In this document: in pieces, positions 44,485 through 61,186 of the stretch
How positions within the stretch are numbered: position 1 is the stretch's first letter
How the letters are laid out: every line of letters begins with the position of its first letter
NCBI GenBank assembly: GCA_023251875.1
Contig: JAHEXY010000005.1
Span: forward strand, 251,008 to 315,007
Length of the DNA stretch: 64,000 bases
Direction of reading: 5' to 3'
Origin: Bacteroidota bacterium
GTDB lineage: Bacteria; Bacteroidota; Bacteroidia; JAHEXY01
Made by a program: the position numbers and the translations under genes
Notes under the pieces: generated by a model
The model's input: only the letters and a program-made list of their open reading frames with translations
Told to the model about the DNA's origin: nothing
Database searches by the model: none

Positions 44485-46515
44485 TCATTGACCTGTTACT
44501 ACTTTCCCGAGATTCACTTCTCCATCTTTAAGTTTTCCGTCTAAAACCGCATTTCCTTTTTTGTCGATTACAGCAGCTTGTAATGAAGTAGCGCTAAGCA
44601 TACCTTCTCCCTTGCGGTTATCTGATAAAATAATATTTTTTACTGCCGACATTTTAAGTGTATTTCCATCGGTACTTATTTTAAAAGTCGCATTGTTCTG
44701 AACAATTATAAAACCGCTCCCTTCTTCGCCAAAAACCAATGGATTTCCATCGGTAGTTTCAACTATAATAGTACCATCTGTATTGGTAACTGACTTTACC
44801 CTTTTCAATTCTCCATACATAGCGGGGCTTTTTGATTTAAAATCAGATGGTAATGCTTTCACTATTTCAGTACCACTTACATCATCACCCGGCTTAAGCA
44901 TATTCGAAAGGGTAAAAAGCGCTACTGTTCCTTCCTGTATGTCTTTTCTCTTGGCTGCTTCTGCTATAAGTTGGTCGGCTTTTAATGCGGCTTCTCCTGT
45001 AGGGTCAATAAATAATATTGGATTATTATTCATGGAATTATAGGGGCTCATGGATGGAAATTTTTGTGCCAATGGATCAATTGACAATGCAAATAGTACA
45101 GGATCGGTATTGGTTATAGCAAATGCAAGTGTATTATCAAAAGCAATTGTAGCTGCTTCTATATTTAAACTTACCATACCAATGCTGTAAGCATTTTTTG
45201 TTTCATGTAATTCGGGAAATTTATTTTTTGAAAGGGTGTAATAATTTTGTTTGTTATCAATTTGTTGAAATGGAGCTATTTTTTTTGTTGATTTTGCAAA
45301 AGGTACTATACCTGAAGTTTCAGCCATTAATAATTCTTGCATATTGCCCGGCATAGGTTCATAGCCATAATCATGAAGTTTGGTAACCACATCAATTAAG
45401 TCAGAAATTTTGCTAATATTTTCAAGTGCTGTTTCATAGTTATTATTTGTCAATTCATTTTTTATTTTTTCTTCCAATACTTGCTCTTTGAACAATAGCG
45501 CACTTAGATTTGTTGAATCATATTTTAGAACTACATTCACACAATTTAACTCAAACTCTTTCATTCGTAATTCTGCATTCATCATTCTTAATTTTTTCTC
45601 ATAGCCTTTTGCCAAATAAACTAAACTCAATGCAACCGCTTCTTTTTCATTAAGCCTTTTCATAGCTATGCCCTTGGTAATGGCTTCATGTGTGGTATAG
45701 GTATAAGTTTTAATGGTGCCGCTGCAGGGAAATGATTGAGTAGGAATTTCAATATTGTAGTAATTTCCATCAAAGCCTTTGTGTTGGATAAATATATGCT
45801 GGGGAGCTGTGCTAAGAAAAGCATTGCTTTGCAAGCGCAATGAAAAAATATAATACAAGGCTGATAATGAAAAACAATTTCCTATTTTAGTGAGACTTAA
45901 TTCCGCTTTTTCAGCGGAATTATTAGTCGAACTAATCCCGCTTTGGCGGGATATTTCATCAGTAGATGATACAAGATTAGAAACCATTGTTACTTCCCAC
46001 TTATCATTTCCATAAGGATCTTGTTTTGCATATTGCATGGGGTATTGAGTAACATAAGTATTTTCTTGCTTCCAAAAAGTAGTATCGGTTAAGTAAGTAA
46101 AAATAGCCCAGTTTAAAAGACACCCCTCTCCGGCTCTCCCCGAAGGGGAGAGGGGAAGAACGCTATTTTCAAACTGAAAAGGTTTAGAAACTCTATCTTT
46201 ATTTGCATTAGCCAATTGAAGAATTCGATTGGTATGAAAATTCAATGTTTCTGTAAATGCCTTTTTTGATAATGTATTATCGTGGTAAGCATTTTCAATT
46301 TCAAAAATGGCCTCTTCAAAACTTAAAATTGATTTGCCATTGAGCATGTTGTTTAGTTGCTCATAAGCTGTTTGATAATTTAAATTTGTTAACGAATCAT
46401 TCGTATCATTTGCAAATAAATTAGTTGCAGTGAATAAAAATAAAATTAGGGCCGGCAACAAAAAATGAATTTTTGTTAGGCTGATAATGTTTTGAATTTT
46501 GTTGTTGTTGAACAT
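44485..46515 (-). CDS. Shell-less RHS-like polymorphic protein A: signal peptide + transglutaminase-like domain + RHS cleavage motif + unknown 169-aa C-terminus
   Basis: GNCFSL...APQHIFI; SIDPLAQKFPSMSPYNSMNNNPILFIDPTG; paralog of 47494-49695 up to DPxG. Confidence 0.75.
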   Translation of the reverse strand: MFNNNKIQNIISLTKIHFLLPALILFLFTATNLFANDTNDSLTNLNYQTAYEQLNNMLNGKSILSFEEAIFEIENAYHDNTLSKKAFTETLNFHTNRILQLANANKDRVSKPFQFENSVLPLSPSGRAGEGCLLNWAIFTYLTDTTFWKQENTYVTQYPMQYAKQDPYGNDKWEVTMVSNLVSSTDEISRQSGISSTNNSAEKAELSLTKIGNCFSLSALYYIFSLRLQSNAFLSTAPQHIFIQHKGFDGNYYNIEIPTQSFPCSGTIKTYTYTTHEAITKGIAMKRLNEKEAVALSLVYLAKGYEKKLRMMNAELRMKEFELNCVNVVLKYDSTNLSALLFKEQVLEEKIKNELTNNNYETALENISKISDLIDVVTKLHDYGYEPMPGNMQELLMAETSGIVPFAKSTKKIAPFQQIDNKQNYYTLSKNKFPELHETKNAYSIGMVSLNIEAATIAFDNTLAFAITNTDPVLFALSIDPLAQKFPSMSPYNSMNNNPILFIDPTGEAALKADQLIAEAAKRKDIQEGTVALFTLSNMLKPGDDVSGTEIVKALPSDFKSKSPAMYGELKRVKSVTNTDGTIIVETTDGNPLVFGEEGSGFIIVQNNATFKISTDGNTLKMSAVKNIILSDNRKGEGMLSATSLQAAVIDKKGNAVLDGKLKDGEVNLGKVVTGQ
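45561..45595. repeat. Heptamer tandem repeat inside the CDS (second copy at 48741-48775)
   Basis: tcattcg-taattct-gcattca-tcattct-taatttt; encodes LRMMNAELRMK. Confidence 0.6.
45887..45953. repeat. Composite palindromic element inserted in-frame (second copy at 49067-49133)
   Basis: ttagtgagact-aattccgct/agcggaatt-agtcgaactaa-tcccgc/gcggga; same family as the intergenic copies. Confidence 0.8.
46123..46156. repeat. REP-like CTCTCCCC/GGGGAGAG element inserted in-frame (second copy at 49303-49336)
   Basis: cccctctccggctctccccgaaggggagagggga; resembles 61153-61186. Confidence 0.75.
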
Positions 46516-46657
46516 ATTTTGTTGTTATAGTTTTGGTGCTGTTTTTTATTTAATATTGATAGATGAAACTACTGTCATTTTATATTTGGTATCACTCTAG
46601 TTTTTTTATTATCTTAGGTATAAGAAAAGTGTATGTTATATACTAAAACGATATACT

Positions 46658-46894
46658 ATGTCAAACATTGAAATAAAAAAACGGCTTATTAATAAAATAA
46701 AGTCAAGCAAAAATCAGCTTCTGCTCGAAGAAATATACAGATTACTTGAACTTGAATATGATAACTTTGAAATATTGGAATTATCTGTTGGCCAAAAAAA
46801 TGCAATTCGCAAAGGCCAATTGGATATTAAAAAAGGAAAAACGCTAAGCAACGAACAAGCAAATGCAGAAATTGATCAATGGCTAAAAAAATAA
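46658..46894 (+). CDS. Putative type II antitoxin
   Basis: 78 aa; AIRKGQLDIKKGKTLS motif; overlaps the downstream ParE-like toxin. Confidence 0.75.
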   Translation: MSNIEIKKRLINKIKSSKNQLLLEEIYRLLELEYDNFEILELSVGQKNAIRKGQLDIKKGKTLSNEQANAEIDQWLKK

Positions 46895-47193
46895 AATGGT
46901 CAGTACAGTCGCATAAAGACCGAAAGCGTATTCTGCAATTTTGGATAAAGCATAATAAATCTAAAGTATATAGCATAAAACTAAATTTACTTTTTAAGCA
47001 TGCGATACAAATCATTTCTAAATTTCCGAAAATTGGAAAGATTACGGATATAAAAAATGTTAGGGCTAAAATTGTTCGCAATTACTATATTTTCTACAAA
47101 GAAACAAAAAATGAAATTTTTATTATTTCCATTTGTGATGCCAAACAAGACCCTGTCAATATTGAAACGAAAGTAAAAAAAATCATGTCTTAA
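46879..47193 (+). CDS. RelE/ParE family toxin
   Basis: IKWSVQS...FPKIGK...NYYIFY...IISICDAKQDP. Confidence 0.85.
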   Translation: MAKKIKWSVQSHKDRKRILQFWIKHNKSKVYSIKLNLLFKHAIQIISKFPKIGKITDIKNVRAKIVRNYYIFYKETKNEIFIISICDAKQDPVNIETKVKKIMS

Positions 47194-47217
47194 ATGCATT
47201 ATTTTTAAAGAGATGAA

Positions 47218-47243
47218 TTTCACCTATCAATATTTCAAAGAAC
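47218..47243 (-). promoter_or_regulatory. boxA-like motif plus stalk arm (other copies at 50347-50372 and 50977-51001)
   Basis: Minus strand reads GTTCTTTGAAATATTGATAGGTGAAA; the arm is complementary to 46552-46568. Confidence 0.5.
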
Positions 47244-47327
47244 TTAGTGAGAATCAATTTTTGCAATCCCGATTTATCGGGAGCAGTAAAAATTGTAAGT
47301 CGAACTAATCCCGCTTTTAGGCGAGAT
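47244..47327. repeat. Composite palindromic element
   Basis: ttagtgaga...agtcgaactaatcccgcttttaggcgagat. Confidence 0.75.
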
Positions 47328-47347
47328 AGTATGATTTTATTTTTATA

Positions 47348-47380
47348 AGCTTTACCAAAGTTTATAACTTTGGTAAAGCT
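47348..47380. repeat. 33-bp hairpin AGCTTTACCAAAGTT-nnn-AACTTTGGTAAAGCT (other copies at 50467-50499 and 51018-51050)
   Basis: Perfect 15-bp arms in all three copies. Confidence 0.85.
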
Positions 47381-47493
47381 GGGTATTGCTTTGTAATTTT
47401 ATTATGTAGGATTACAAATCCTATTTTTTTAATAAAGGCAAAATGCCTTCTCATAATTGGCATTGGGTAGTCCTAGCGCCATCAGGATATTCT

Positions 47494-49695
47494 CTATTTT
47501 TCGTTATAGTTTGGTACTTCACCTTCTTGCTTGGTTCCAATATCAATGTCTTCATGATTTGTTATTCTGGCTGCGCCTTTTGTTTCTGTGGCAAGCCTTT
47601 CTTTTTGGTCGTGTAAAATGAAATATATATTCCATCCGGCATTATCGCCATTTTCAATATTGGGTAATTCATTCTCAACAGGACTCAAAACTGTGCATTG
47701 ATCACCTCTATGATTATTTCTTTCTCCTTCTCCCGTTACCTTTACAAAATCTCTTTCCCTGCCACTTATTACCCTATCCTCTTCCCAATTATCCATATCA
47801 TCAAATGTTTTTGATCCTACATCTTCTCTGTATTGTTTTGTATTAGAAATGTTTTGATCGGCATGATCTAGTTCGTGCAATAAGTTTGTGGCAGGAGATG
47901 TGCTCTCTCCGGTTGGAGTGCCCTTATCATCAACAATGGCAAGTCCGGATGAAGCATCCCAGGAAATTATTCCACTATTTTTAACTCGCTTACCTGATGA
48001 TGGGTAAAATTCATAACCATAAGAAACTTTATCTATTCCATTAACCTCTGTAACGGTTATCATTTCTGAACTTTTCCCTAATTTATCAACAATATCAGCC
48101 TGACCATTTTCCCGAAGGTACTGAAGTGCCAAATAAAATTTTCCTTGAAATTCCTGACTTGTGCCCTTTGCAAATCTAAATTCTTTTCCATCTGGATCAA
48201 CATAAATAATTGGATTATTTCCCATAGCATTGTATGGGCTCATGGATGGAAACTTTTCTGCCAAAGGATCAATTGACAAAGCAAACAAAACCGGATCGGT
48301 ATTATTAAACGCAAGTTCAACTGTATTATCAAAAGCAATTGTGCCTTCAGTTACATTCATACTTAGCATACCAATATTGTAGGTGTTTTTTGTTTCATGC
48401 AATTCAGGAAATTTATTTTTTGAAAGTGTGTAATAATTTTGTTTGGTATCAATTTCTTGAAATGGAGCTATTTTTTTGCTACTTTTTTTCGTAGATACAC
48501 TCTGCATGTCTGCCAATAATAGTTCCTGCATATTGCTTGGCATAGGTTCGTAGCCGTAATCATGAAGTTTGGTAACCATATCTACTAGTCCGGTAATTTC
48601 ATTCGCACCTTCATATCCTGCTTCATTTGCTAATTCATTTTTTATTTTTTCTTCCAACACTTGCTCTTTGAGCAATAGCGCACTTAGATTTGTTGAATCA
48701 TATTGTAGAACTACATTCACACAATTTAACTCAAACTCTTTCATTCGTAATTCTTCATTCATCATTCTTAATTTTTTCTCATATCCTTTTGCCAAATAAA
48801 CTAAATTCAATGCAACCGCTTCTTTTTCACTCAGCCTTTTCATGGCTATGCCGTTAGCAACAGCTTCATGTGTGGTATAGGTATAGGTTTTAATAGTCCC
48901 GCTGCCTGGAAATGATTGTGTTGGCAATTCTACATTATAATAATTTCCATCAAAGCCTTTGTGTTGGATAAATATATGCTGGGGAGCTGTGCTAAGAAAA
49001 GCATTGCTTTGCAAGCGCAACGAAAAAATATAATACAAGGCTGATAATGAAAAACAATTTCCTATTTTAGTGAGACTTAATTCCGCTTTTTCAGCGGAAT
49101 TATTAGTCGAACTAATCCCGCTTTGGCGGGATATTTCATCAGTAGATGATACAAGATTAGAAACCATTGTTACTTCCCACTTATCATTTCCATAAGGATC
49201 TTGTTTTGCATATTGCATGGGGTATTGAGTAACATAAGTATTTTCTTGCTTCCAAAAAGTAGTATCGGTTAAGTAAGTAAAAATAGCCCAGTTTAAAAGA
49301 CACCCCTCTCCGGCTCTCCCCGAAGGGGAGAGGGGAAGAACGCTATTTTCAAACTGAAAAGGTTTAGAAACTCTATCTTTATTTGCATTAGCCAATTGAA
49401 GAATTCGATTGGTATGAAAATTCAATGTTTCTGTAAATTCTGTTTTTGAAAGCCGATTATCAGAGTATGCATTTTCAATTACAAAAATAGCATCTTCAAA
49501 ACTTAAAATTGATTTGCCATTGAGCATGTTGTTTAGTTGCTCGTAGGCTTGTTGATAATATTGGTTTGTTAACGAATCATTCGTATCACTTGCAAATAAA
49601 TTAGTTGCAGTGAATAAAAATAAAATTAGGGCCGGCAACAAAAAATAAATTTTTGTTAGACTGAAAATATTTTGAATTTTGTTTTTATTGAACAT
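47494..49695 (-). CDS. Shell-less RHS-like polymorphic protein B with a HExxH (M91/NleD-like) metalloprotease C-terminus
   Basis: Same N-terminal body as protein A; SIDPLAEKFPSMSPYNAMGNNPIIYVDPDG; C-terminus SPATNLLHELDHA...NWEEDRVI...GEGERNNH. Confidence 0.78.
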   Translation of the reverse strand: MFNKNKIQNIFSLTKIYFLLPALILFLFTATNLFASDTNDSLTNQYYQQAYEQLNNMLNGKSILSFEDAIFVIENAYSDNRLSKTEFTETLNFHTNRILQLANANKDRVSKPFQFENSVLPLSPSGRAGEGCLLNWAIFTYLTDTTFWKQENTYVTQYPMQYAKQDPYGNDKWEVTMVSNLVSSTDEISRQSGISSTNNSAEKAELSLTKIGNCFSLSALYYIFSLRLQSNAFLSTAPQHIFIQHKGFDGNYYNVELPTQSFPGSGTIKTYTYTTHEAVANGIAMKRLSEKEAVALNLVYLAKGYEKKLRMMNEELRMKEFELNCVNVVLQYDSTNLSALLLKEQVLEEKIKNELANEAGYEGANEITGLVDMVTKLHDYGYEPMPSNMQELLLADMQSVSTKKSSKKIAPFQEIDTKQNYYTLSKNKFPELHETKNTYNIGMLSMNVTEGTIAFDNTVELAFNNTDPVLFALSIDPLAEKFPSMSPYNAMGNNPIIYVDPDGKEFRFAKGTSQEFQGKFYLALQYLRENGQADIVDKLGKSSEMITVTEVNGIDKVSYGYEFYPSSGKRVKNSGIISWDASSGLAIVDDKGTPTGESTSPATNLLHELDHADQNISNTKQYREDVGSKTFDDMDNWEEDRVISGRERDFVKVTGEGERNNHRGDQCTVLSPVENELPNIENGDNAGWNIYFILHDQKERLATETKGAARITNHEDIDIGTKQEGEVPNYNEK

Positions 49696-49805
49696 ATTTT
49701 TGTTGTTAAATTTTGTGCTGTTTTTTAAATGCTATTGATAGATGATATTCATTTTCTTTATTAATTAAAAGCCTTACCTTAGCATAATTAAATTATTACT
49801 TAGTT

Positions 49806-50018
49806 ATGCGACTTGTTTTATCAATACAGGATAGTAAGCTTTCTTTTTTTTTAGAACTTATTAGAAACTTTAGATTTATTAAAGTAGAAGTTCTTGATAA
49901 AGAACCTTCAAAAGAGGAAATAAAATCTAATATTCGTAAAGGTGTAAAAGAACTTCAATTAATAGAAAAGGGAAAGCTAAAAACTACTCCATTAAAAGAT
50001 TTTTTAAATGGCCTTTAA
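49806..50018 (+). CDS. Putative type II antitoxin
   Basis: 70 aa; FFLELI...IRKGVKELQLIEKGKLK; overlaps the toxin start. Confidence 0.75.
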   Translation: MRLVLSIQDSKLSFFLELIRNFRFIKVEVLDKEPSKEEIKSNIRKGVKELQLIEKGKLKTTPLKDFLNGL

Positions 50019-50337
50019 AGTTGAAACTACACCTAATTTTAATAAAGAAGCCAAACGCCTTATTAAAAAATACCCTTCCCTAAAATATGAATTAGCTGAG
50101 CTAGGCAGTGAACTGGAAAACAATCCTTTTCAAGGAGATTTGCTAGGTAATCACGTTTACAAAATCCGAATGGGTGTTGAAAGTAAAGGAAAAGGAAAAA
50201 GTGGTGGTGCACGAATTATTAGCCATGTAAAAGTGGTAAAGCAAATAATTTATCTTTTTTCCATATATAGCAAAGGAGAAAAAGATAGCATTACAAATGC
50301 TGAAATTAAAGAGCTGCTATTAGAAATTCCTAACTGA
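50008..50337 (+). CDS. RelE/HigB-like toxin
   Basis: FNKEAKRLIKKYPSL; YKIRM...KGKGKSGGARII; IYSKGEK. Confidence 0.88.
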   Translation: MAFKVETTPNFNKEAKRLIKKYPSLKYELAELGSELENNPFQGDLLGNHVYKIRMGVESKGKGKSGGARIISHVKVVKQIIYLFSIYSKGEKDSITNAEIKELLLEIPN

Positions 50338-50372
50338 TATAATGTATTTCACCTATCAATATTTCAAAGAGC

Positions 50373-50447
50373 TTAGTGAGACTCAGATTTTAGAAGCGAT
50401 AGCGAAAAAAATCTGTAAGTCGAACTAATCCCGCTTTTGGGCGGGAT
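50373..50447. repeat. Composite palindromic element
   Basis: Near-identical to 29993-30068. Confidence 0.8.
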
Positions 50448-50653
50448 TGTGTGATTCTATTTTTAAAGCTTTACCAAAGTTTTAAACTTTGGTAAAGCTG
50501 GGTAATTTTTTTGAAGGATTACAAATCCTGTATTATAGGGTTTGGTTTATAAAACCAAACTAGCTCTTTCGAATCCAAACCATCCGATATGCATAATTGC
50601 CAACTACCGTTATATTTCATAAATTTGACTCTATCAATCTAATTTTTACGAAT

Positions 50654-50881
50654 ATGCAAACCATAAACATTGTTGCACATGCCGAGGATGTTTCTCAAAT
50701 AGAAGCTATTAAAGCTGTTTTAAAAGCCTTCAAGATTAAATTTGAAATTTATAAAAACAAGGGTAAAGAGAAACCTTATAATCCTGAATTTGTTGCCATG
50801 ATACAACAGGGCGACAAAGACTTAAAAGATGGTAGAGGAAAAAAAATGAGCCTCAAAGAACTGAATGCTTTATGGAAATAA
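50654..50881 (+). CDS. DUF2683-like antitoxin
   Basis: QIEAIKAVLKAFKIKFE...PYNPEFVAMI...DLKDG; ends in LWK, overlapping the ATG of the toxin remnant. Confidence 0.78.
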   Translation: MQTINIVAHAEDVSQIEAIKAVLKAFKIKFEIYKNKGKEKPYNPEFVAMIQQGDKDLKDGRGKKMSLKELNALWK

Positions 50882-50955
50882 TCATTCTTCCAAAAGCACA
50901 AGAACATTTAGATTTTTGGAAAAGAAAAGGCAATAAAAGTCTCCTTTATTCATAA
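50872..50955 (+). pseudogene. Truncated Txe/YoeB-family toxin (27 aa)
   Basis: MEIIILPKAQEHLDFWKRKGNKSLLYS* resembles YoeB N-termini; the rest is missing before the repeat at 50977. Confidence 0.7.
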
Positions 50956-51182
50956 ATTCGGCTATTACCTGTAGCATTCATCTATCAATATTTCAAAGAA
51001 CAATTTTATTTTTATTAAGCTTTACCAAAGTTTCAAACTTTGGTAAAGCTGGGTGTTGCTTTGTACTTTTTATGCAGGATTAAAAATCCTGTTTTAGAAG
51101 GTTTGGTTTACAAAACCAAACCAGCTCTATCAAACATCTAAACCATCCGGGGAAAACCATCGCACATCTAAACCATATAATT

Positions 51183-54100
51183 TTATCTTGCGAGACGAGT
51201 TGGTGCTTGCTTCGGTAAACTTTTATCAACAGGTTGCAATCTATCTCTTTTTTCAATATGTAGTCTCTCTTCATCTGACATTTGAGGACCACTTTGCTGA
51301 TTATCTATTTTTTCGAGCTCTTTAAGTTCCACTTCTGTTGGAGTAACTTCTTTATAACCTAATACATGTTCAAATTCAACCCCTGCTGATACATATACCC
51401 CTCCGCTAACTCCAGCCTCCACTTCGCCAGCAACACACATTCCATCACTCTTAGTTTCAGTATTTTCGAATAATGGAGACGAGCCTTCTACAGAAACTTT
51501 TCCCCCTATCTCCGCTGAGCCTTCTCCTCCAATCTCCACTTCTTTATCCCATCCCCCAATGGCATCTACAACTTCGTCTATTGTAACCGGGCTGTTATCT
51601 TTTGATTCAACTTGCGAGTAACAGATAGCAACACCTGTCGAAGCAGTTAAAGTCCCACCCGCCTCTAATCCTGCACTTCCACCAACATATACAGTGGCAA
51701 TAAGGTAATACCTATACCCATTGCCATTTGCATTAGGTACACGAGCAAGGTAAGAGGCATGACCAAATCCAAACTCTCCTCTACCAAGTATTCCGCCACT
51801 TACACCTAACACTCTCTGTTCAGCACTAATAATACGTGCAGGTTCTGGCGCCATCCCATCCGGATCCACCATATTAATTGGATCATTTGCCATTGCACTA
51901 TAAGGAGACTCACCGGCAAACTTCTCTGCCAATGGGTCTAAGCTTAGCCAACGGCCTACTCTGGCATCGAGAATACGGGCGCCAAAGTCGTAGGCAACGG
52001 CATTGCCCATGAGTTCGGTTTCTTTTTCTTTGCCTTGGTAGCCGTAGCGGTAATCGCTGCTGCTTACAGTTTGGCCGGGCATTTCCATACCAAATGGGTA
52101 GTAATCTGCAAGGGAAACTACATCGGCTGTAAAGTTTTCGGGTGCGCCTGTGGTGGCATTAATAGCTGCATTTTTCTCGTCACTTACTACGGCTCGCATA
52201 TTGCCCAAATGGTCTTTTAGCTCGTAAAATTTAAAGCCTGTTGAGCGGGTAAAGGTTCCGGTTTCGCTGGTTTTTGAAATGGATGTTACATTAACTTCAT
52301 CTTTAACTGTTCCTAAGCGGCCGCCTGCTGCGTAAATGGGTAGTTCCTTAAGAGTAAGCGATGTTGTTGTAGTGGTGCTGCCACTGCCTAATGAAGGGGC
52401 TGTGCCGCTACCTAAGCCAGTACCACTGCTACTTCCTGAAAGAATACCTGTACCTGAAGTAGTATATTCTCCTTTGTATATAGCCATTTCGCTTCCATTG
52501 GCATCGCGTACATAGTAGCTAGTAGTAGAGCTTACGCCCAGTTTGCCCGTTTCTGTTTTACTAATTTTATTGCCTAAGGCATCATAAGTATAGTTTAGTG
52601 TAGTTCCATCACTTTTTGTAACCTTGCTTACTTTGCCATTTAAGCCCCATTCTATTTTGCTTACGCCAGAAGCTACATCTGCGGTGAGCTGGCCGTTGGC
52701 ATTGTAGGTATAGTTATCTGTTTTTTGATCGTCAAGGTCGGTACCGTAATTGCCGCTGCTTATCAAATCATTAACACTATTTAGTTGATTGGTTTCATTG
52801 TTATATACATAAGATAATGCATCCATTCCCAACTTATTTGACGATGTATAATAGCCATTACGGTTTAAGGATGTTATATTTCCATTTTTATCGTATTCAT
52901 AAGATGAAAAATAATCTCCTTTGCCATCTGCATCGTTTCCATTTACCCATGAACTGCCGTTATAGTAATCGAAATTGCTTTGTACCAAGCGATACAGTTC
53001 ATCGTACTTGTACATAAAACCTTTTACTTTTCCATCATAAGAATTGCTTGTGCTAGATGTTGTAGAAGCTGTGTTATAAGCCATATTGGTGATAGTACCA
53101 TTAAATAGTTGGGTATAGCTTGCTCCGGTTGTACTTCCTGTTGCATCAGGCATATCCCAGCTCATTTGTTGTATCCCTGTATTATAGTAAGGAGAAGCAT
53201 TATCATAAAATTCAGAATTGAAGACTGAAAATTGATCGAGGGTGCCATCCTTATTATTATCAATACCTCGTTTAAAGTCTCCATTAAAATAACCCAGTGT
53301 CATACCAAAGGCATCGGTAGGGAAATTACCATAAGCAGTATTACCATCTTTACCCGGGTCGTAAGTGGAACTTAAACTCTGGTGATTAATAGCTTTAAGC
53401 CATCCGTTGAGTGTGTATACATGATCGAGGCCTTGTATGTTATCTTCACCAATGGATACGCGTTTTAATGGACCGTAAGCATAATATTCATAAGTGGCAT
53501 CTTTATCCCAAATTACACCATCGCGTGAGGTTTCAACTGTTTTTATTCTGTTATCAGAATCATAAGAATAGCGGTGAAAAAACTGATCTTCATAGCCTTC
53601 GTTGTATTTTACTTTTTTTACTTTAGAAGTTATTAAATCGTATTCATAGGCTATTTTTTTATCGTCCATGCCGGGTATGCGTTGTATGAGCCATTCAACA
53701 TTACCGTGAGGATCATAACTGTAAATGGTATAAATTTCATCACCGGTATAAGCATAGCTTACACGGTTTTGAATGTAGCGCTGTTCATCGCTTAAAGTTG
53801 TTTCGCTATACGCTTCTGTGAAAACGGTATAAATTTGCTCTTTGCAGGAAGACGAAGGATAATCTTGATCATCAACATTATCTTCAAAATCAGCATCAGC
53901 ATTGGCACAGCGGCCTGCTTCAATAATGCGTCCTAAATCATCGTATTTTATATACGCATAATCGTTATCGGCTTTTTGCACTTCGTTTTGTGAAAAACGC
54001 AATTGTCCAATACTATTATACCAAAACTGTTTTACACCTCCATCGGGCGTTTTTTCATATATGCGCTGCCCAAGTGAATTATAACTGTAATCGGTAGTAA

Positions 54101-57100
54101 GGGTATGATTTTTTTCATCCTGTAAAGTAGGCCTTTGGTCAATAATGCCATCATCATTGGTATCCATATCCATTACATCAGCTCCTTTGGGTGGCACGGT
54201 TTGCACCAAATTACCTGCAACGTCATAAAAGAAAAGGGTGTATTGGTGGTAATCGACCGAGTATTTAATGGTAAAGCTATCCGTAATGTTTGTAGGCAAG
54301 GTACAAGCTGCCTTGTAAATGGCTACAGTTGTATCACGTTCGTAATTTTTACAATCGAGCAATTGCTCAGATATGGCATTGCGCACATATTCTACAAGGC
54401 GAGGATCACATTCGGTGGCAGGCGATAAGATGTGACTGGTATTAAGGTTAAGCCATGAAAAGGTGCTTTTCCATTCTCCGGTTACAGGGCCAAGGCTATA
54501 TGAAGGATTAATAGGGGATTTGTATAATTCGCGATAAGTAGTAGTAGCCGATGCGCCTATTCCGGATGTGGTGGCAAGAATAAGTTTGCCATCTTTTACC
54601 GTTACTTTTACACTTCCATTACTTCCGGCTTTTTTGATAAGGGAATCGGGCTTAAAATAAGAACCAAGCCCACTTTTTACAAATGAACCCAGTTTAAACT
54701 TGGCATCTGTTTCTTCAAGTTCTGAAAGCATTTCACTTGCCTTTACAGGAGCATTTCCAGCCTTTTGAATCATTTTGTTAACTACATAGGCTTGCATATC
54801 GGCATAAGAAACGGTAGTTTTAGCAAACAATTTTTCAACATTTACTTTACCGGTAAAATTGGCCGGCTCCTCTGTACTTACCTCCAAAGGCATCATCATT
54901 ATTTTATAAATAGAAGCCATTTCATTATCCGTTGCAATTGACTCCGGTATGTTATTAGCATCATCGTCTTGTATGGTAATAGAGATTTGATTTTTTAATT
55001 TGCTAACAATTTCGTCAGCCACATAATCAGAAAGTACGCTATTAGGATATATGGTAGCATCAAGTTTTTGCAAACGGGTGCTTATGGTAGGGCCGCGGTA
55101 TTCACAAATTTTTTGAGCTGAGTCAACCATGGCTCCTGTAATTTCTTGCGTACAAGTAAGGCTGGGGGTATTGCTACAAGAAGAGAATGTACCTGCTTCA
55201 TCTTCTTCCTCAACAATATTTTCTAAATCGGAGTTTAGGCATGTATATAGTTGTTCCCATACTTTACAGGCCCCATCTTCATCTTTTTCATCGCCTATCA
55301 CTTTACCGGTAGAAGGATCCCACCAGGCATAGGTTCCGCAGCTCTCGGTATCCCATTCAGGATTTCCGTTTTCATCGGTTTCGGTGGGGTTTGTCCACTT
55401 ACTCATGGCATCTTTAAAATTACTTATGCCCATCATTGATAAGCAATTTTCTTGTTGGTTATTTAAAACCAGCTCCTGATCTGTATAACTTTCATTGGGG
55501 TATTCATCCATTTTAATAAAATCGGGTTCATAAAACGATTTATAAGCATATTCTAAATACCCATAATGAGTTCTGGTTTCATGAGAGGGATCATTTTGTC
55601 CATCGCTTCCGGGAAAGCCACTATAAGCATCGGCATCTGTAAAACTTGTATCATAAGGCTCATAAGCGTAACCTGTGTACATTTTACCGGCAGCTTTTAA
55701 AAATTCATCTAATAAATCATAACCATAAGTATCTTTCATGTCATTGTAATTATTTGCCAAACCTTCCCAAATTGTCATAATGGTATAGCAATCATAGCCG
55801 TCTTCTTGTATCATGTGGTTGGCCATGGCATTAAAAGCTCCATTGCCATATTGAAAAGTAGTAGATGGGTTATGAAGTTCAAAATCATCAAATGAAATAT
55901 GGTCGGCAATATTTGTGTTTGTTGAAGTGAAGTTAAGGCCAAACGTAGTTGCTTCAAGTTCAGGGTGATCAACAAAGTTCATTTTTATTGTTATCGTATA
56001 TTTGTCGTTTTCTAAAGACGAAACAGAAAACTCATAGTTCGGATAGGTTTGGTTTAAATATGCCCACATGCTTTTTGCCAACTCATATCCTGTAAAATAT
56101 TTATCACAGTCAGAGCTACCGCTTGAGTAAGCACATGATCTATGTAAAAAATCACCTTCTGTAGTAGCGGTATTTTTATCTTCATCGTTATTATACGGAT
56201 GCTCGTCACCATTAAAATTATAATCAGGATCGTAGATTAAATAGTCCTGGGCAATATCTCTTTCGGTTTCACTTGAAGTTGTGTCGGCTTCATCTTCTAG
56301 TGTGTTTACATAGCTTACAACCTCTGTTCCATTTTGTGTTATGCTCATAGTAAGAGTTGATCCCAAGTAATTAGGGTGATCATCAAAGTCATACTGTCCG
56401 GCATCGATATATATTTTAGCTTCTGTATGATAATCGCCAGAGGGATATGTATAATCTCCATATTTATCTTTAAAGTAGCGATACAATTTATCTTCAAGAG
56501 CAATATCATAGCTGTCTGTCCAGCCTTCATCAATGGCTTTGTCTGTTAACACGCTTTCAAAATCGTAATAACCTTTGTTGGCTTCTATTATATCTTTATA
56601 GGTTTCTGAGCCATTGGAGTATTCTTTCGATGCTCCGGAATTTATCTCATCGATGCTGGTTCCGTCACTCAAATCATAATCAATCCACCATTCGCTACAC
56701 AAATCAAAACCACAATCAATTTTTGGAACGGCTACGGTGCAGCAAGAAGAAGCAATGTTGTAATAAGGTATATCGTCAATAGTATCAGTTGAAGATACCC
56801 AAAGGTCGTTTTCGGTTTCTACGTATTGAACAGAAGTATAGGATGGCCCGCCTCCAATATTACCGCCTCCAATATTATTAATTACTCCGTTTCCGCCACC
56901 TGATGTGCCCAATGGGTTTAGTATGTTTGTGGATGAGCTTGATCCAACAGACACATCCGAGCCAACAACCATTGTAGTTGTGTATTGTTCAGTAGGAAGG
57001 TCATCAATAAAAGTGTATAGTTCATCTAATACCAAATCTTCCTCTTCAAGATAGGTAAATAGGGTATCAAACTTTGAATTTTGAATATCCATCAGCGAGT

Positions 57101-60100
57101 CTATTTGCATGCCGTGGTAATCGGCATAGCGCATACTATCACTATTGTATGTGTTTACGCTAATGCGGCAACCAAAACGGTAGTTACCCGGGTCGGAACA
57201 AGAAATGTCGTCTGTAACCACGATGGTATCGGTATAATCTTCATCACAGGAGCTTGGGCCTATTATAATGGTGGTATCGAATTTTAGTTCATTGGTTTCT
57301 TCGCGTATGCCATAGATGTTAAGAGTATAATCGCAGGTGCTACAGTAATCAACACAGTTAGCTTTAAAATCTTTAACATTAAAATAGTAAGCATAGGTGG
57401 GTGTTACCGTTGGGTCGGCAAAATAGATGGATGCTTCTTTTAAAAGCGTATAGTCATTTAACTGAACCGTTGATTTTATTTGTTTTGTTTCATAGATGGT
57501 ATTGGTTGAGATATCATCTAATAAAGGATGATCACCGGTGCTGATGAGGCAGGTGGCAATGGTTTTACCATCCAAGGTTTTGTATTCAACTGTTGGCATT
57601 TCGTTAGGGTCGACACGAACAATTTTATACACGCTGCTATCGGCCGGGGCTTGGTTGCCAAATACTTTTAATAAAGCAGTGTCGCTAACGGCAGAATAAT
57701 ACGTACGTACGGTGCGTTGCATACCGCCATCAATATATGTTTGGTCGTATAAACCCATGCGGTGCTCAGCGCCAAAAAGAGATTGTTTTTTTACTCTTCC
57801 ATCTTGGTGGTAGAGGGTGCGCGAAAAAGCAAAACTATCGGCAGCCGGTATGTTTATATCGGAGTTTAAATCAGAAAAGTAATTGTTGATAGGGCCTACC
57901 ATGGGCAATGGGTTTTCCCAAATAGGCACTGAATCCAAATCATCAGCAAACTTTGTGCGGCTGTTTACATCAAAATCCTGCACGTTATACGCATTGCCCG
58001 AAGTGTCTTGAATAAGCATTTTGTGATAACCCAATGAATCTTGATTTACGGGTGCAACCATGCTTTGAATGGCAGGGCGGCCCACATAGTCATATACTGT
58101 TTGGCTCATGAGCACACTGTCTATTTCCTGTAGTTTGCGCTGGGTTTGCACCAGCTGGCCAAGGCCTGTTCCATAACTAATACCTTCGGCTATTTTGTTT
58201 TGTTCGGTAAAAGTTCGGTTGTAAATCCAGTTTTTATCGGTATCAAATTGTTGGTAGTAAAACATGAATTTCTTTTCGGTACTACTAAGGTCAGTTGTTT
58301 TAGAATAGGTTTTTGTACCATCGCTTTCATCATAAGCATCACTCCAATTACCCCAGTTTTGGCTGTTTCCGTAACCGTTTTCATAATACGTTCCAATGGG
58401 GCGTACCCGCCAAATATAGTAACCGGTACCTTCGGTAAGGGTAAGGGATAAAGAGGTGTTGGAGCTTTCGGTTAATATAGAAAGTGCGTGATCCCAGTTA
58501 ATGGTAGTACTTACTGCTTCCTCAATATCTTCGTAAGTTGAGCTTGTGTTGTACAAACGCATAATTTGTACTTCGTAGCCGGGCACATCATCACCACAGT
58601 TTTTGGCTTGCCATGATAAAGTAACAGGGTTGGAAGAGCATGGAGAAGTGATAGCTTGTGTTGATAGGGAAACATCAGTAACATCAACACCTAAATCGGA
58701 AGTATAATAAGCTTTTAATTGAAGGCTGTCATGAACTAAATTGTTTAATGAATCATAAGATGTTATTTTTATTTTGTAACCAATTAAGTCTTCATACGAA
58801 GAAGTTATTTCCTCGCGATAAAGCTGCTTAGGTTGATTTTGATTAATGCTTAAAGTAATATTAGAAGATTCGGAGCCTGTAGAAGTAAGTGTATATGGAG
58901 TAAGTGTAAAAGTTACTTCTTCCTTAAATTCATTTTTTGAGCCAAACTGATAGCCTTCACCGGTACTTAGTTCGAGATTGAGATAAGCGCTATTTACTGT
59001 TTTATCGGTACAATCATCGTCATAAGGAGAGCAAAGGGGTTTGGTTTCTCCTGCCTCCAATTCAGCTTGGGTATAAACCACCTGGGTATCGCCTTTTTCA
59101 GGGACAAACATATAAAAATAATTGTCGGAAAGTTGAACACTAGGGCTCTGCAATCGTGTATAATCATCGCCATATTGTATGGCATAGGAGCCATTGTATT
59201 GCACACCCATGGTCATGCTGTTATTGGTATATTTTGTTTTATTATAATACATATCAATAATGTAAATGTAGTTGTTGCTTTCTTGCAGCATACAGCCATA
59301 GAAATTATCAGATACATAGGGGTTACCTGTACACATGGAGTACCACCTTACCCATAACAGGCGGTTAGGTTCAGAACCTGTTACTTTATAATAAACAACA
59401 TCATTAGAACCTAAATTTGTAGTTGGATAATCGTCCCAATAGCAGGCAATGGTTTTATCGGGCAGTGATGAAGAAGGTAAATTTTCGTTTACACTGGGTA
59501 AAAGATTGGTTGAAGATGAAAAAGTAAGCAAACCATTTGGTGTAACCTTAAAGCTACTTACCGCTTCGCCAAAAAATAAAAAATTAAAAGGCATTGTGAT
59601 GGCAGATGACCAAGATGTAATGCTTGCCAGCGTACTATAACCGCTAATGGCGGTCCAACCATCGGAAGTAGGAACAGAGCTATCATAAATAGTAGATGCC
59701 GTATTGTATGGAAGCCATGATGATAGCTGATACGCTTTGTTTGGTTGGGTATATGATAAAAGAGGTGATTCATAAACGGGCGAAAACATAAAATAGTTGT
59801 TGTTCCATAAACCGGTAGATTCTGACTTTAAATATAAAGAACTGCCATAATCAATTGCAACGGAACTGTTGTATTGTAAACCAACAGAAGAAGTATTTGT
59901 AATTGCTCCCGAGCCATTGTATAAATCAACCATATAAATTCGGTTAGATGTTTCTTCGAGTACGCATGCAAAAAAATTATTTTCGGTGGCTGTGCTTCCA
60001 TATTTCATGGAGTACCATTTTATCCATAGCTGGCGATTGGGTGCTTTGCCAGAAACATAATAATATACCATATCATTTGAACTGGTTTTGGTGGCTGCTT

Positions 60101-61127
60101 TATCCCAAAAGCAGGCAATACTTTTATCGGGCAAAGAGGCAGAAGGCAGGGATGAATTATCATCAGGCAAAGCAGTAGCTGTAGTAGTAAAAGTAAGAAC
60201 ACCATTTAAGGATACCATAAAGCTGCTTACTTCTTCGTCAAAAAATTTAAAACTAAAAGGCAGGGCTGTGGCAGCAGACCATTTATTGGCAGAACTTGCA
60301 CCAAGTAATGTTGTCCATCCTGTTTTATAATCATCGGCAGTAGTATTTACTCCAAGCGGATTGCCTTTTTTGCGGTAATAGTTGGCGGTGTAATTATCGG
60401 TGGTAAGGGTATCGTAAGAAGGTGAAAAAGTATAAAAATAATTATTGGCATAAGCCGTTGAGGTAGATTGAAGTGTGGCTGAAGAAGAATACGTCATACC
60501 TTCTGCAGAATATTTTTGAATGCCAATGGTAGAAGAAAGTTTGCTTGAAACTCCGGCTGTGGTTATACCGTTATACAAATCAACCATATAAATATTACTT
60601 GTACCTTCCTCGAGTACGCAGGCAAAATAATTATTGGCTTCGACACCCATTTTCATGGAATACCATTTGATCCAAAGCTGGCGGTGAGGTGAGCTTCCTA
60701 TTGTGGTGTAATATACGAAATCATCTGCATTGGTGCCCCCCAAGCTTGGGAATGCATCCCAAAAACAAGCAATGCTCATTTTAGGAAAATAAGCTGAGGG
60801 AAGTGAAGTGTTTTCACCGGGAATAACTACGCCTGTATTGGTGGTATCGAAAGTAACAAGACCATTGCAGCTTACTTTAAAGTGTGTAACATTTTCGCCA
60901 TAAAAGTGAAATTTAAAGCTCGATGGCAAGGCAATGGCTTTAGACCAATTGTTCACTTTTGCTGATGCACTTAAAGCAGTTGTCCACCCGGTAAAATAGG
61001 CATCGGCTGTGGTATTAAGCAGGTGTGGGTTACTTCCTGATGAAGCACTCATGGTATAAGTTACATCCTGTGCTTGTGATACACTAAGTAGTGTAAGGAA
61101 GCTTAAAAGTAGAAGAAGGTTTTTCAT
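51183..61127 (-). CDS. Giant RHS/YD-repeat polymorphic toxin (~3314 aa): signal peptide, three NIDO-like repeats, DUF6443-like region, RHS core and 223-aa C-terminus
   Basis: MKNLLLLLSFLTLLSVSQA signal (ATG 61127); YD repeats; YELKDHLGNMR, DYYPFGM, YRYGYQGKE, YDFGAR and RWLSLDPLA...DPINMVDPDG. Confidence 0.9.
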   Translation of the reverse strand: MKNLLLLLSFLTLLSVSQAQDVTYTMSASSGSNPHLLNTTADAYFTGWTTALSASAKVNNWSKAIALPSSFKFHFYGENVTHFKVSCNGLVTFDTTNTGVVIPGENTSLPSAYFPKMSIACFWDAFPSLGGTNADDFVYYTTIGSSPHRQLWIKWYSMKMGVEANNYFACVLEEGTSNIYMVDLYNGITTAGVSSKLSSTIGIQKYSAEGMTYSSSATLQSTSTAYANNYFYTFSPSYDTLTTDNYTANYYRKKGNPLGVNTTADDYKTGWTTLLGASSANKWSAATALPFSFKFFDEEVSSFMVSLNGVLTFTTTATALPDDNSSLPSASLPDKSIACFWDKAATKTSSNDMVYYYVSGKAPNRQLWIKWYSMKYGSTATENNFFACVLEETSNRIYMVDLYNGSGAITNTSSVGLQYNSSVAIDYGSSLYLKSESTGLWNNNYFMFSPVYESPLLSYTQPNKAYQLSSWLPYNTASTIYDSSVPTSDGWTAISGYSTLASITSWSSAITMPFNFLFFGEAVSSFKVTPNGLLTFSSSTNLLPSVNENLPSSSLPDKTIACYWDDYPTTNLGSNDVVYYKVTGSEPNRLLWVRWYSMCTGNPYVSDNFYGCMLQESNNYIYIIDMYYNKTKYTNNSMTMGVQYNGSYAIQYGDDYTRLQSPSVQLSDNYFYMFVPEKGDTQVVYTQAELEAGETKPLCSPYDDDCTDKTVNSAYLNLELSTGEGYQFGSKNEFKEEVTFTLTPYTLTSTGSESSNITLSINQNQPKQLYREEITSSYEDLIGYKIKITSYDSLNNLVHDSLQLKAYYTSDLGVDVTDVSLSTQAITSPCSSNPVTLSWQAKNCGDDVPGYEVQIMRLYNTSSTYEDIEEAVSTTINWDHALSILTESSNTSLSLTLTEGTGYYIWRVRPIGTYYENGYGNSQNWGNWSDAYDESDGTKTYSKTTDLSSTEKKFMFYYQQFDTDKNWIYNRTFTEQNKIAEGISYGTGLGQLVQTQRKLQEIDSVLMSQTVYDYVGRPAIQSMVAPVNQDSLGYHKMLIQDTSGNAYNVQDFDVNSRTKFADDLDSVPIWENPLPMVGPINNYFSDLNSDINIPAADSFAFSRTLYHQDGRVKKQSLFGAEHRMGLYDQTYIDGGMQRTVRTYYSAVSDTALLKVFGNQAPADSSVYKIVRVDPNEMPTVEYKTLDGKTIATCLISTGDHPLLDDISTNTIYETKQIKSTVQLNDYTLLKEASIYFADPTVTPTYAYYFNVKDFKANCVDYCSTCDYTLNIYGIREETNELKFDTTIIIGPSSCDEDYTDTIVVTDDISCSDPGNYRFGCRISVNTYNSDSMRYADYHGMQIDSLMDIQNSKFDTLFTYLEEEDLVLDELYTFIDDLPTEQYTTTMVVGSDVSVGSSSSTNILNPLGTSGGGNGVINNIGGGNIGGGPSYTSVQYVETENDLWVSSTDTIDDIPYYNIASSCCTVAVPKIDCGFDLCSEWWIDYDLSDGTSIDEINSGASKEYSNGSETYKDIIEANKGYYDFESVLTDKAIDEGWTDSYDIALEDKLYRYFKDKYGDYTYPSGDYHTEAKIYIDAGQYDFDDHPNYLGSTLTMSITQNGTEVVSYVNTLEDEADTTSSETERDIAQDYLIYDPDYNFNGDEHPYNNDEDKNTATTEGDFLHRSCAYSSGSSDCDKYFTGYELAKSMWAYLNQTYPNYEFSVSSLENDKYTITIKMNFVDHPELEATTFGLNFTSTNTNIADHISFDDFELHNPSTTFQYGNGAFNAMANHMIQEDGYDCYTIMTIWEGLANNYNDMKDTYGYDLLDEFLKAAGKMYTGYAYEPYDTSFTDADAYSGFPGSDGQNDPSHETRTHYGYLEYAYKSFYEPDFIKMDEYPNESYTDQELVLNNQQENCLSMMGISNFKDAMSKWTNPTETDENGNPEWDTESCGTYAWWDPSTGKVIGDEKDEDGACKVWEQLYTCLNSDLENIVEEEDEAGTFSSCSNTPSLTCTQEITGAMVDSAQKICEYRGPTISTRLQKLDATIYPNSVLSDYVADEIVSKLKNQISITIQDDDANNIPESIATDNEMASIYKIMMMPLEVSTEEPANFTGKVNVEKLFAKTTVSYADMQAYVVNKMIQKAGNAPVKASEMLSELEETDAKFKLGSFVKSGLGSYFKPDSLIKKAGSNGSVKVTVKDGKLILATTSGIGASATTTYRELYKSPINPSYSLGPVTGEWKSTFSWLNLNTSHILSPATECDPRLVEYVRNAISEQLLDCKNYERDTTVAIYKAACTLPTNITDSFTIKYSVDYHQYTLFFYDVAGNLVQTVPPKGADVMDMDTNDDGIIDQRPTLQDEKNHTLTTDYSYNSLGQRIYEKTPDGGVKQFWYNSIGQLRFSQNEVQKADNDYAYIKYDDLGRIIEAGRCANADADFEDNVDDQDYPSSSCKEQIYTVFTEAYSETTLSDEQRYIQNRVSYAYTGDEIYTIYSYDPHGNVEWLIQRIPGMDDKKIAYEYDLITSKVKKVKYNEGYEDQFFHRYSYDSDNRIKTVETSRDGVIWDKDATYEYYAYGPLKRVSIGEDNIQGLDHVYTLNGWLKAINHQSLSSTYDPGKDGNTAYGNFPTDAFGMTLGYFNGDFKRGIDNNKDGTLDQFSVFNSEFYDNASPYYNTGIQQMSWDMPDATGSTTGASYTQLFNGTITNMAYNTASTTSSTSNSYDGKVKGFMYKYDELYRLVQSNFDYYNGSSWVNGNDADGKGDYFSSYEYDKNGNITSLNRNGYYTSSNKLGMDALSYVYNNETNQLNSVNDLISSGNYGTDLDDQKTDNYTYNANGQLTADVASGVSKIEWGLNGKVSKVTKSDGTTLNYTYDALGNKISKTETGKLGVSSTTSYYVRDANGSEMAIYKGEYTTSGTGILSGSSSGTGLGSGTAPSLGSGSTTTTTSLTLKELPIYAAGGRLGTVKDEVNVTSISKTSETGTFTRSTGFKFYELKDHLGNMRAVVSDEKNAAINATTGAPENFTADVVSLADYYPFGMEMPGQTVSSSDYRYGYQGKEKETELMGNAVAYDFGARILDARVGRWLSLDPLAEKFAGESPYSAMANDPINMVDPDGMAPEPARIISAEQRVLGVSGGILGRGEFGFGHASYLARVPNANGNGYRYYLIATVYVGGSAGLEAGGTLTASTGVAICYSQVESKDNSPVTIDEVVDAIGGWDKEVEIGGEGSAEIGGKVSVEGSSPLFENTETKSDGMCVAGEVEAGVSGGVYVSAGVEFEHVLGYKEVTPTEVELKELEKIDNQQSGPQMSDEERLHIEKRDRLQPVDKSLPKQAPTRLAR

Positions 61128-61152
61128 GGTACAAATATTAGTTGTTCGTTGA

Positions 61153-61186
61153 CCTCGCCCCCGACCCCTCTCCAAAGGAGAGGGGA
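61153..61186. repeat. REP-like element
   Basis: cctcgcccccgacccctctccaaaggagagggga. Confidence 0.7.

Follow-up and report, generated by a model that had tools for sequence, protein, structure and literature searches.

In the genome of a Bacteroidota bacterium (GTDB lineage Bacteria; Bacteroidota; Bacteroidia; JAHEXY01), type II toxin–antitoxin (TA) genes lie antisense between the large genes of polymorphic-toxin-type clusters, and each such insert is bracketed by a pair of complementary arms, the first of which is a near copy of the boxA element of the host's own ribosomal RNA (rRNA) operon. The stretch analysed here, referred to as the window, comprises 64,000 nucleotides (nt) of contig JAHEXY010000005.1 (assembly GCA_023251875.1, positions 251,008 to 315,007; C7:251008-315007 in our numbering of the 23 contigs of this 4.8-Mb genome). 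The best-supported reading, to which we assign a probability of roughly 55%, is that each insert is enclosed by an RNA module of the rRNA-operon type, which would act on the large toxin-cluster transcript through antitermination, looping, and cleavage. What is observed is that the long arms share their sequence with the boxA and stalk arm of rRNA, that the architecture recurs and is oriented, that the pairing between the arms is of RNA type, and that cargo is uncoupled from flanks.

The window contains three long arms and two complementary short arms. The long arms, which the original prediction had placed at 47243-47218, 50372-50347, and 51001-50977, are indeed three minus-strand copies of the 23-mer TCTTTGAAATATTGATAGRTGAA with two leading bases. 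The 23-mer itself occupies 47219-47241, 50348-50370, and 50977-50999, giving three matches where 0.00 are expected, and none of 100 shuffles of the window contained a match. The short-arm 13-mer TCATCTATCAATA, allowing one mismatch, has six matches in the window against 0.22 expected. These lie at 46554-46566 and 49733-49745 on the minus strand and at 47220-47232, 50349-50361, and 50978-50990 on the plus strand, while the sixth (20146-20158) is an unrelated site. The predicted complementarity of the short arms is seen both in these matches and in the inverted repeats that join 46552-46579 to 47207-47234 (28 nt, 79%), 49733-49753 to 50341-50361 (21 nt, 86%), and 46552-46567 to 50977-50992 (16 nt, 100%). 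Because both are exact matches to TCATCTATCAATA, 49733-49745 also pairs perfectly over 13 nt with 50978-50990.

Together with the cargo between them, these arms define three slots, named W3, W2, and W1 in the direction of the minus-strand toxin cluster. Slot W3 opens with a hairpin in the boxB position (51018-51050, minus strand), a 33-nt palindrome, AGCTTTACCAAAGTTTGAAACTTTGGTAAAGCT, with a folding energy (dG) of -19.5 and a z-score of -7.7. The long arm that follows (50977-51001, minus strand) consists of the boxA core GTTCTTTGAA (51001-50992) and the 5' strand of the putative stalk, and the cargo is a lone DUF2683 gene on the plus strand, antisense to the cluster (50597-50881; Pfam PF10884, 74 bits). 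In slot W2, a second hairpin (50380-50421, minus strand; dG -12.0, z -4.2) precedes a long arm (50348-50372, minus strand) with the boxA variant GCTCTTTGAA and the stalk 5' strand. Its antisense cargo (49806-50337, plus strand) comprises a 70-aa open reading frame (ORF), a putative antitoxin gene without a Pfam match, and a 109-aa RelE-family toxin gene (PF06296, 36.6 bits). W2 and W3 have one short arm in common, the stalk 3' strand at 49732-49753 (minus strand), 37 nt upstream of the next start codon. Slot W1 repeats the design, with a hairpin at 47262-47285 (minus strand; dG -11.0, z -3.1), a long arm at 47219-47243 (minus strand) made up of boxA core GTTCTTTGAA (47243-47234) and stalk 5' strand, and antisense cargo at 46658-47193 (plus strand) encoding a 78-aa putative antitoxin without a Pfam match and a 104-aa ParE-family toxin (PF05016, 25.1 bits). 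Its short arm, the stalk 3' strand (46552-46568, minus strand), is again 37 nt upstream of the next start codon. A search of 46300-51400 against Rfam returned nothing meaningful.

Homology between the paralogous parts of the cluster ends at the arms, as had been predicted. In blastn comparisons, 45008-46566 aligns with 48202-49745 (89.5% identity) and 47213-47385 with 50342-50504 (84.6%), and nothing aligns between 46567-47212 and 49746-50341, that is, between the two inserts.

The resemblance of the long arm to the boxA of the host, also part of the original prediction, proved to be close. One rRNA operon is assembled, on contig C19, with its 23S end and 5S gene on C10. In its 16S–23S spacer, a hairpin (TCCCAATTTATTGGGA) is followed by AATAA and then by GTTCTTTGACATGTTGATTG, with which the slot motif GTTCTTTGAAATATTGATAG agrees at 17 of 20 positions; the 16S leader, GTTCTTTGAATGTATTGAAG, shares GTTCTTTGAA plus TATTGA with the slots. 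The boxA reads GTTCTTTGAA in the leader and GTTCTTTGAC in the spacer. Across the genome it reads GTTCTTTGAA in nine of 12 slots, the remaining three having GCTCTTTGAA, AATCTTTGAA, and TTTCTTTGAA. Agreement with the consensus GYTCTTTAANA, which is gamma-proteobacterial and is given in PMC5725501, extends to 10 of 11 positions. All 12 long arms retain TCTTTGAA, while the equivalent flank of the short arms varies. In the rRNA operon, this sequence provides the processing stalk with its 5' strand, and both rRNA copies pair with a trailer: the spacer/23S-trailer duplex has an energy of -38.4 kcal/mol and the leader/16S-trailer duplex one of -31.3 kcal/mol.

This likeness reaches beyond the boxA core. 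Using a fixed pattern, 400 plus 120 genomes were scanned, and the slot 20-mer was found at two or fewer mismatches in 66 of 400 sampled other genomes of the class, against 0-1 matches per genome for a reversed control. Comparison of 15 of these loci with Rfam placed six in the stretch that separates the spacer tRNAs from 23S and two ahead of 16S; there is no rRNA near the other seven. Compared with the leader or spacer boxA elsewhere in the class, the slot long arm is one or two bases different, and the spacer copies of two genomes (G142 and G209) are a single base off the slot motif. The occurrence of the 20-mer at rRNA loci across the class implies that the whole 20-mer, and not merely the boxA core, is a class-wide rRNA element. 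Placement within the genome is likewise non-random, in line with the original prediction. There are 22 genomic sites of the form GTTCTTTGA[AC], of which two are in the rRNA operon, nine in slots, and 11 elsewhere, nine of these 11 being within ORFs of at least 290 aa.

An alternative identity for the long arm, as a Bacteroidetes promoter, was rejected on inspection of the sequence, there being no TAnnTTTG box in register. Nor does such a -7 box occur on the operon strand anywhere in the two intergenic stretches, where about 1.8 would be expected from the genome-wide rate; this is weak evidence, consistent with a dependence of the downstream genes on readthrough. The genes for NusB, Rho, and RNase III (nusB, rho, rnc) are present in the genome, which shows the existence of the machinery only.

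The window is one of several places at which this arrangement occurs. In the whole genome, the TCTTTGAAATATTGATAGRTGAA 23-mer has 14 matches at three or fewer mismatches, against none for a reversed control, and a scan for the motif together with its arm partner, as had been proposed, recovered 12 slots with the same layout on six contigs (C5, C6, C7, C14, C15, and C20). Read in the direction of the large genes, each runs from a large-gene stop codon through a hairpin, an A-rich spacer, GTTCTTTGAA, ATATTGATAGATGA, and the cargo to the complement of the ATATTGATAGATGA 14-mer. The distance from stop codon to boxA is 140-250 nt, the inserts are 0.45-1.6 kb long, and the complementary arm ends 33-44 nt before the next start codon wherever a following gene exists. 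Each of the 12 long arms points in the direction of the large gene upstream of it, and 20 of 21 cargo ORFs are antisense. The flanking large genes mostly encode RHS repeats or DUF6531. A hairpin ends 4-17 nt ahead of boxA in 10 of 12 slots (z <= -2.5, single-sequence folds), as one does in the rRNA spacer; RNAalifold predicted 0 pairs for a consensus hairpin upstream of boxA, the hairpins having neither their sequence nor their register in common. Two pairs of slots, and in part C20a/C20b, are in tandem. In W3-W2 and C14b-C14a, two long arms face one short arm, so that 10 short arms serve 12 long arms.

At least seven type II TA families are represented in the cargo according to Pfam: ParE, RelE (PF06296, in three slots), YoeB, PIN (two slots), PIN_2, HEPN with a nucleotidyltransferase, HicB-like, and DUF2683 (two slots). 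Assignment to the type II TA systems rests on a small adjacent gene pair of which one member carries a known TA domain; four putative antitoxin ORFs and the ORF of slot C6 matched no Pfam family. The DUF2683 genes of slots W3 and C5a are orphans. Elsewhere in the genome, homologues of DUF2683 adjoin homologues of YoeB (C19:500471-500937 and C20:63028-63512), which suggests that DUF2683 is the antitoxin partner of YoeB-like toxins in this genome.

Differences among the arms are of a kind expected for RNA. Watson-Crick pairs occupy 156 of the 168 core positions in the 12 arm pairs taken together. The exceptions comprise five mismatches, all at position 1 or 14, and seven internal positions, every one of which is a G·U pair on the operon-strand RNA with the G in the long arm; on the TA strand there are no G·U pairs. 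Compensated double changes that keep the Watson-Crick pair occur at position 13 in C5b and position 12 in C15. The sample is modest, yet the pattern is one-sided and looks like that of an RNA helix on the operon strand. The arm duplexes have energies of between -19 and -31 kcal/mol, compared with between -9 and -12 when the partner is shuffled, and the stalk closes both the minimum free energy and the centroid folds of the two inserts tested, W1 (46535-47260) and W2 (49715-50390).

Cargo and flanks are uncoupled. The original prediction had described the arms as delimiting an exchangeable cassette slot, and this is supported by the upstream flanks of W1, W2, W3, and C7c, which are 94-97% identical and precede four unrelated cargos. 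Conversely, the cargos of C20a and C5b are 90% identical over 623 nt within unrelated flanks; those of C6 and C14b are 95% identical. Where cargo homologues outside the slots were matched by tblastn, none had paired arms within 1.5 kb. The arms are nearly invariant, whereas the hairpins beside them and the cargo between them differ completely. On these comparisons, the arms are best assigned to the slot and not to the TA genes. At insert-free paralogous junctions (on C10, C22, and C8), the same kinds of hairpin repeats are followed directly by the leader of the next gene, and both boxA and arms are absent; the unit from boxA to short arm therefore behaves as an insertion and may have originated as a mobile cassette. 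Just past the end of the window and downstream of slot C7c, at C7:319288, the paralogous start codon position reads ATA instead of ATG. The N-terminal domain of this gene aligns at residues 7-39 only, giving a decayed start behind an intact short arm.

Searches beyond this genome yielded one further example. In G359, a genome from another family (L083 8400-10080, G359:C1), a hairpin and AAGTTCTTTGAAATATTG are followed by three antisense small ORFs and, 1.35 kb downstream, by a perfect 14-nt complement, with codirectional genes on both sides. The arm sequence differs from that of the slots, and from its layout this locus is judged a single, independent occurrence of the slot design, with an arm that covaries. 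Its antisense ORFs (~133 aa) have the look of small membrane proteins and match no Pfam family. The hairpin in G359 belongs to the CCCTCTCC...GGAGAGGG type, as do the repeats in the window. Exact copies of the 20-mer were found in six stretches of public genome collections and 16 of metagenome collections, and 20 of these 22 were judged to be chance from their sequence context. The near-identical metagenome contigs L047 and L051 carry the full motif ahead of a 548-aa sense ORF with no Pfam family. It includes the exact 24-mer of the slot C7c long arm (L051 7730-9560, and L047; GC 0.30), with an imperfect complement ~1.8 kb downstream; the region is mobile-looking, with a resolvase gene and a beta-lactamase-fold gene nearby.

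Other occurrences were set aside. A downstream complement of 12 nt found in L112 (G510) falls within an antisense ORF and is attributed to chance. In G498 and G424, the boxA word belongs to other kinds of repeat without a downstream complement, and neither was accepted as the same system. G498 (3.3 Mb, another family) has 19 copies of the boxA word (e.g. L124, L127, L128, and L131), most of them ~10 nt behind a promoter-like TTTG...TATATTGC and leading into a ~250-nt conserved repeat that has no apparent ORF and contains CAGCTAAT-type short repeats; this repeat may be a multi-copy, boxA-led RNA gene family. A conserved stretch of ~100 nt with the boxA word recurs in four genomes, namely G424 (18 copies; L133-L136), G469 (L096), G472 (L105), and G509 (L115), and the G424 copies lie ~75 nt from many contig ends, where the terminus of a multi-copy repeat, for example an insertion sequence, would be expected. 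Two copies of GTTCTTTGACATATTGATAG in G178 (L085 ~6203 and L086 ~6131) have conserved flanks and stand directly upstream of DDE_Tnp_1 ORFs, away from rRNA; their appearance is that of an insertion sequence whose leader contains a boxA of the rRNA type.

In the mechanism that we propose, RNA polymerase, having passed the stop codon of a large gene, would transcribe a hairpin, an A-rich spacer, and a boxA that is a near copy of the host's own 16S–23S spacer element. NusB/S10 and their partners would load at boxA, and the polymerase so loaded would resist Rho across 0.45-1.6 kb of RNA that is untranslatable because it is antisense to a type II TA module. Following the model for rRNA described in PMC4807359, the complex would keep boxA and the 5' arm tethered close to the exit channel for as long as the 3' arm has yet to emerge. 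The arms could then close a stalk of ~14-22 bp and loop out the antisense insert, and this stalk would be a plausible RNase III site, 33-44 nt ahead of the next start codon. For the DNA, our reading is that the conserved arms mark out a slot in which different TA modules have been exchanged, by a mechanism that we infer.

A broader proposal builds on this one and is offered only tentatively, being possible and not yet probable. Bacteroidota may host foreign or selfish genes backwards in long operons without polarity, by means of a portable rRNA antitermination and processing module. The insert would be looped out and cut away, which amounts to the excision of an intervening sequence from messenger RNA (mRNA) and would yield a defined antisense RNA against the TA module, while the arms would double as junctions for cassette exchange among toxin loci.

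Several observations weigh against an rRNA-type module acting on the transcript. The original prediction implied long, extended stalks, and these were not found: pairing beyond the 14-nt core is limited to a few outer pairs and is not specific to the cassette. A candidate cassette-specific extension was rejected, since the inner 24 nt gave a mean of -3.33 kcal/mol for cognate and -3.67 kcal/mol for non-cognate partners, with 13398 of 20000 permutations as good; without a cognate preference here, the stalk would be about 14-22 bp and not longer. A 14-bp core with some outer pairs is at the short end for RNase III sites. The seven G·U pairs represent about five independent events, because several arms are paralogues, and the fold energies of whole inserts are ordinary (z -0.87 and -1.57 for two inserts). 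The C-over-G bias of strong Rho entry is absent from the operon-strand RNA of the inserts (C/G 0.99), although this ratio is not an informative test. The upstream hairpin could instead terminate transcription, mainly that of the convergent TA module. Among the cargo ORFs, PIN_2 of slot C5a alone is in the sense orientation. Slots C5b and C15 have no codirectional downstream gene and so cannot serve to carry transcription into one; pointing the opposite way, these two slots are the ones with the most degenerate boxA sequences (AATCTTTGAA and TTTCTTTGAA). A long arm follows only eight of the 44 toxin junction motifs in the genome (see below). Finally, none of the nearest 60 genomes, which belong to the same class only, has an arm; a single two-mismatch match in G020, the only one among them, lacks the boxA core and was read as chance.

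The main rival is a mobile or recombining cassette at the DNA level. The arms would then be DNA sites, either the terminal inverted repeats or recombination sites of a small mobile cassette or the repeats of an inverting system, and would place TA modules in A/T-rich spacers; any likeness to boxA would be secondary, serving for example to avoid a polar insertion. The empty paralogous junctions, with their hairpin repeats and without boxA or arms, make the unit from long to short arm look inserted, and the uncoupling of cargo and flanks also fits such a cassette. So do the inverted repeats of C6, C20a, and C20b, which reach ~21 nt with two mismatches, and the boxA-like words that stand at the ends of multi-copy repeats (G424) or before DDE transposase genes (G178). 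However, no slot contains a transposase or recombinase, no target-site duplication could be recognised in the A-rich flanks, and 12 copies with at least seven unrelated cargos are not one element. The uniform orientation relative to host genes (12 of 12) at one kind of locus, the confinement of all seven internal G·U pairs to one strand, which a DNA-level site does not predict, the retention of the boxA half on one arm only, and the TA paralogues without arms elsewhere also tell against it. For an inverting system, the inverted repeats are present, and this assembly holds a single orientation, with 20 of 21 cargo ORFs antisense. We consider it unlikely that the arms are DNA-level sites of this kind.

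It is improbable that the arms instead serve the TA modules, whether as a 5'–3' panhandle on the TA mRNA that would affect its stability or termination, or as paired operators for one shared regulator. It is true that the short arm has an ATG within it and stands 50-90 nt ahead of the first cargo gene, and that the TA strand has Bacteroidetes-type -7 boxes at 46581 (TATATTTG) and 49695 (TATTTTTG), so that the short arm could be part of TA transcripts. On the same strand, the long-arm complement is succeeded by a T-run in several slots. Nevertheless, the seven variable internal positions would be A·C mismatches in TA-strand RNA, and the conserved boxA reads correctly on the operon strand only. 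A shared regulator would also need one operator across unrelated TA families, and TA paralogues outside the toxin clusters have no arms. Least probable of all is the view that the arms are functionless leftovers of toxin-unit duplication with a fortuitous likeness to boxA: many slots are indeed paralogous (the W1, W2, W3, and C7c flanks at 94-97%), so that their orientation counts are not independent, but a 20-mer within 1-3 bases of a class-wide rRNA element is not a matter of chance (0-1 control matches per genome, and no window shuffle matched), the arms are nearly invariant beside completely differing cargo and hairpins, and their substitutions are compensated or wobble-compatible.

The large genes that frame the slots in the window form a minus-strand run. 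A minus-strand ORF enters from beyond the window end (61502-64000) and is followed by the upstream gene of the cluster, which is called as an ORF at 51183-61175 (minus strand) and encodes a giant RHS-repeat protein of 3330 aa (Pfam RHS_repeat, 23.4 bits). Between the short arm shared by W2 and W3 and the long arm of W1 is a 733-aa polymorphic-toxin-type gene (47494-49695, minus strand) with a signal-like N-terminus, a junction motif, and a C-terminal HExxH peptidase-like domain, for which the Pfam match to Peptidase_M91 is weak (23.5 bits, under the cut-off). Downstream of slot W1 lies a 676-aa toxin-type paralogue (44485-46515, minus strand; ORF call), its DNA 89.5% identical to that of the 733-aa gene over 45008-46566 (blastn). 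After it, the run continues with an SLT/LysM gene and a phosphoesterase gene with a tail of the type IX secretion system (T9SS).

The junction motif is common to the 733-aa and 676-aa proteins and to the C-terminal region of the RHS protein (repeat families D8 and D18; RHS copy C7:302954-302862). It has 44 copies in the genome, each 168-393 codons ahead of a stop, which indicates a large repertoire of polymorphic-toxin-type genes; the N-terminal domain of the 733-aa protein has at least 12 paralogues. For a 4.8-Mb genome, this repertoire is very large. Palindromic repeats also stand in frame inside the two toxin-type ORFs, at 49078-49135 and 49301-49345 in the 733-aa ORF and at 45898-45955 and 46121-46165 in the 676-aa ORF, both of which are unbroken. 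They are of the same kinds as the intergenic hairpin repeats (cf. 47298-47328 and 50418-50448) and resemble palindromic elements inserted into coding sequence.

For rRNA operons and phage lambda, boxA and the Nus complex belong to textbook biology, and to our knowledge only a few other targets are established. If our reading of the slots is true, a complete rRNA grammar of hairpin, boxA, and long-range helix is used a dozen times in toxin clusters, which would extend this machinery to the architecture of mRNA. It would also address how long operons tolerate antisense inserts, and why TA modules accumulate within polymorphic-toxin gene arrays. The 12 slots are natural variants of a single module and offer a non-ribosomal substrate on which to test directly the 'RNA looping' model for Nus.

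The slots can be compared with several known systems. Miniature inverted-repeat transposable elements and other elements with terminal inverted repeats are alike in having inverted repeats of 14-21 nt around 0.45-1.6 kb and in the absence of the unit from empty paralogous junctions. In contrast, the slots have a fixed orientation, one type of locus, RNA-type differences between the arms, and no recognised target duplication, and their internal sequences are unrelated except for the cargo pairs C6/C14b and C20a/C5b. Chromosomal integron arrays carry diverse type II TA cassettes at interchangeable positions, and these may stabilise the array. The slots similarly hold diverse type II TA modules at interchangeable positions among repeated, variable genes. 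They differ in that no integrase was found among the flanking ORFs scanned and no attC-type site at one cassette end, the arms being inverted repeats that flank the cargo at a separation of 0.45-1.6 kb.

Among RNA-level systems, the intervening sequences of 23S rRNA are removed by RNase III at a closing stem, and the resulting fragments stay together in the ribosome. They share with the slots a variable insert between complementary arms inside a longer transcript. Cutting at a slot, by contrast, would separate two mRNAs, and the likeness is an analogy only.

Outside rRNA, boxA is known from the leaders of CRISPR arrays. Further functional cases are the E. coli suhB leader and the ParE-like toxin gene CKO_00699 of Citrobacter koseri, both described by Baniulyte et al. 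2017 (PMC5725501). The cases described there resemble the slots in having boxA on a non-ribosomal transcript and in linking it to a ParE-type TA gene. There, however, boxA lies in a sense 5' leader, less than 50 nt from the start, and represses or protects the same gene, whereas the boxA of the slots is antisense to the TA module, paired with a distal arm, and present in 12 copies. In the literature searched as full text, including the accessible part of a survey of polymorphic toxins (PMC3482391), no boxA with a distal arm enclosing antisense TA modules was found; the supplementary tables of PMC5725501 may list more cases that join boxA to TA genes.

The closest parallel is offered by the antiterminator and processing stalks of rRNA. 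In rrn operons, the elements follow one another in the order boxB-boxA. The names boxB, boxA, and boxC are those used in the abstract of PMC10250234. An rRNA system of this kind combines boxB-boxA-boxC, the factors NusB/S10/NusA/NusG/SuhB, and leader-trailer and spacer-trailer helices that are cut by RNase III. Unlike rRNA stalks, the slots enclose the antisense of protein-coding TA modules within a protein-coding cluster instead of a stable RNA, their core of 14 bp is shorter than the more extended rRNA helix (-38 kcal/mol), and their function is predicted. The order of hairpin, spacer, and boxA is nonetheless the same, and in both boxA abuts the 5' strand of a long-range helix, the 3' strand of which follows 0.5-1.6 kb later. 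The rRNA loop model, as presented in PMC4807359, fits this layout.

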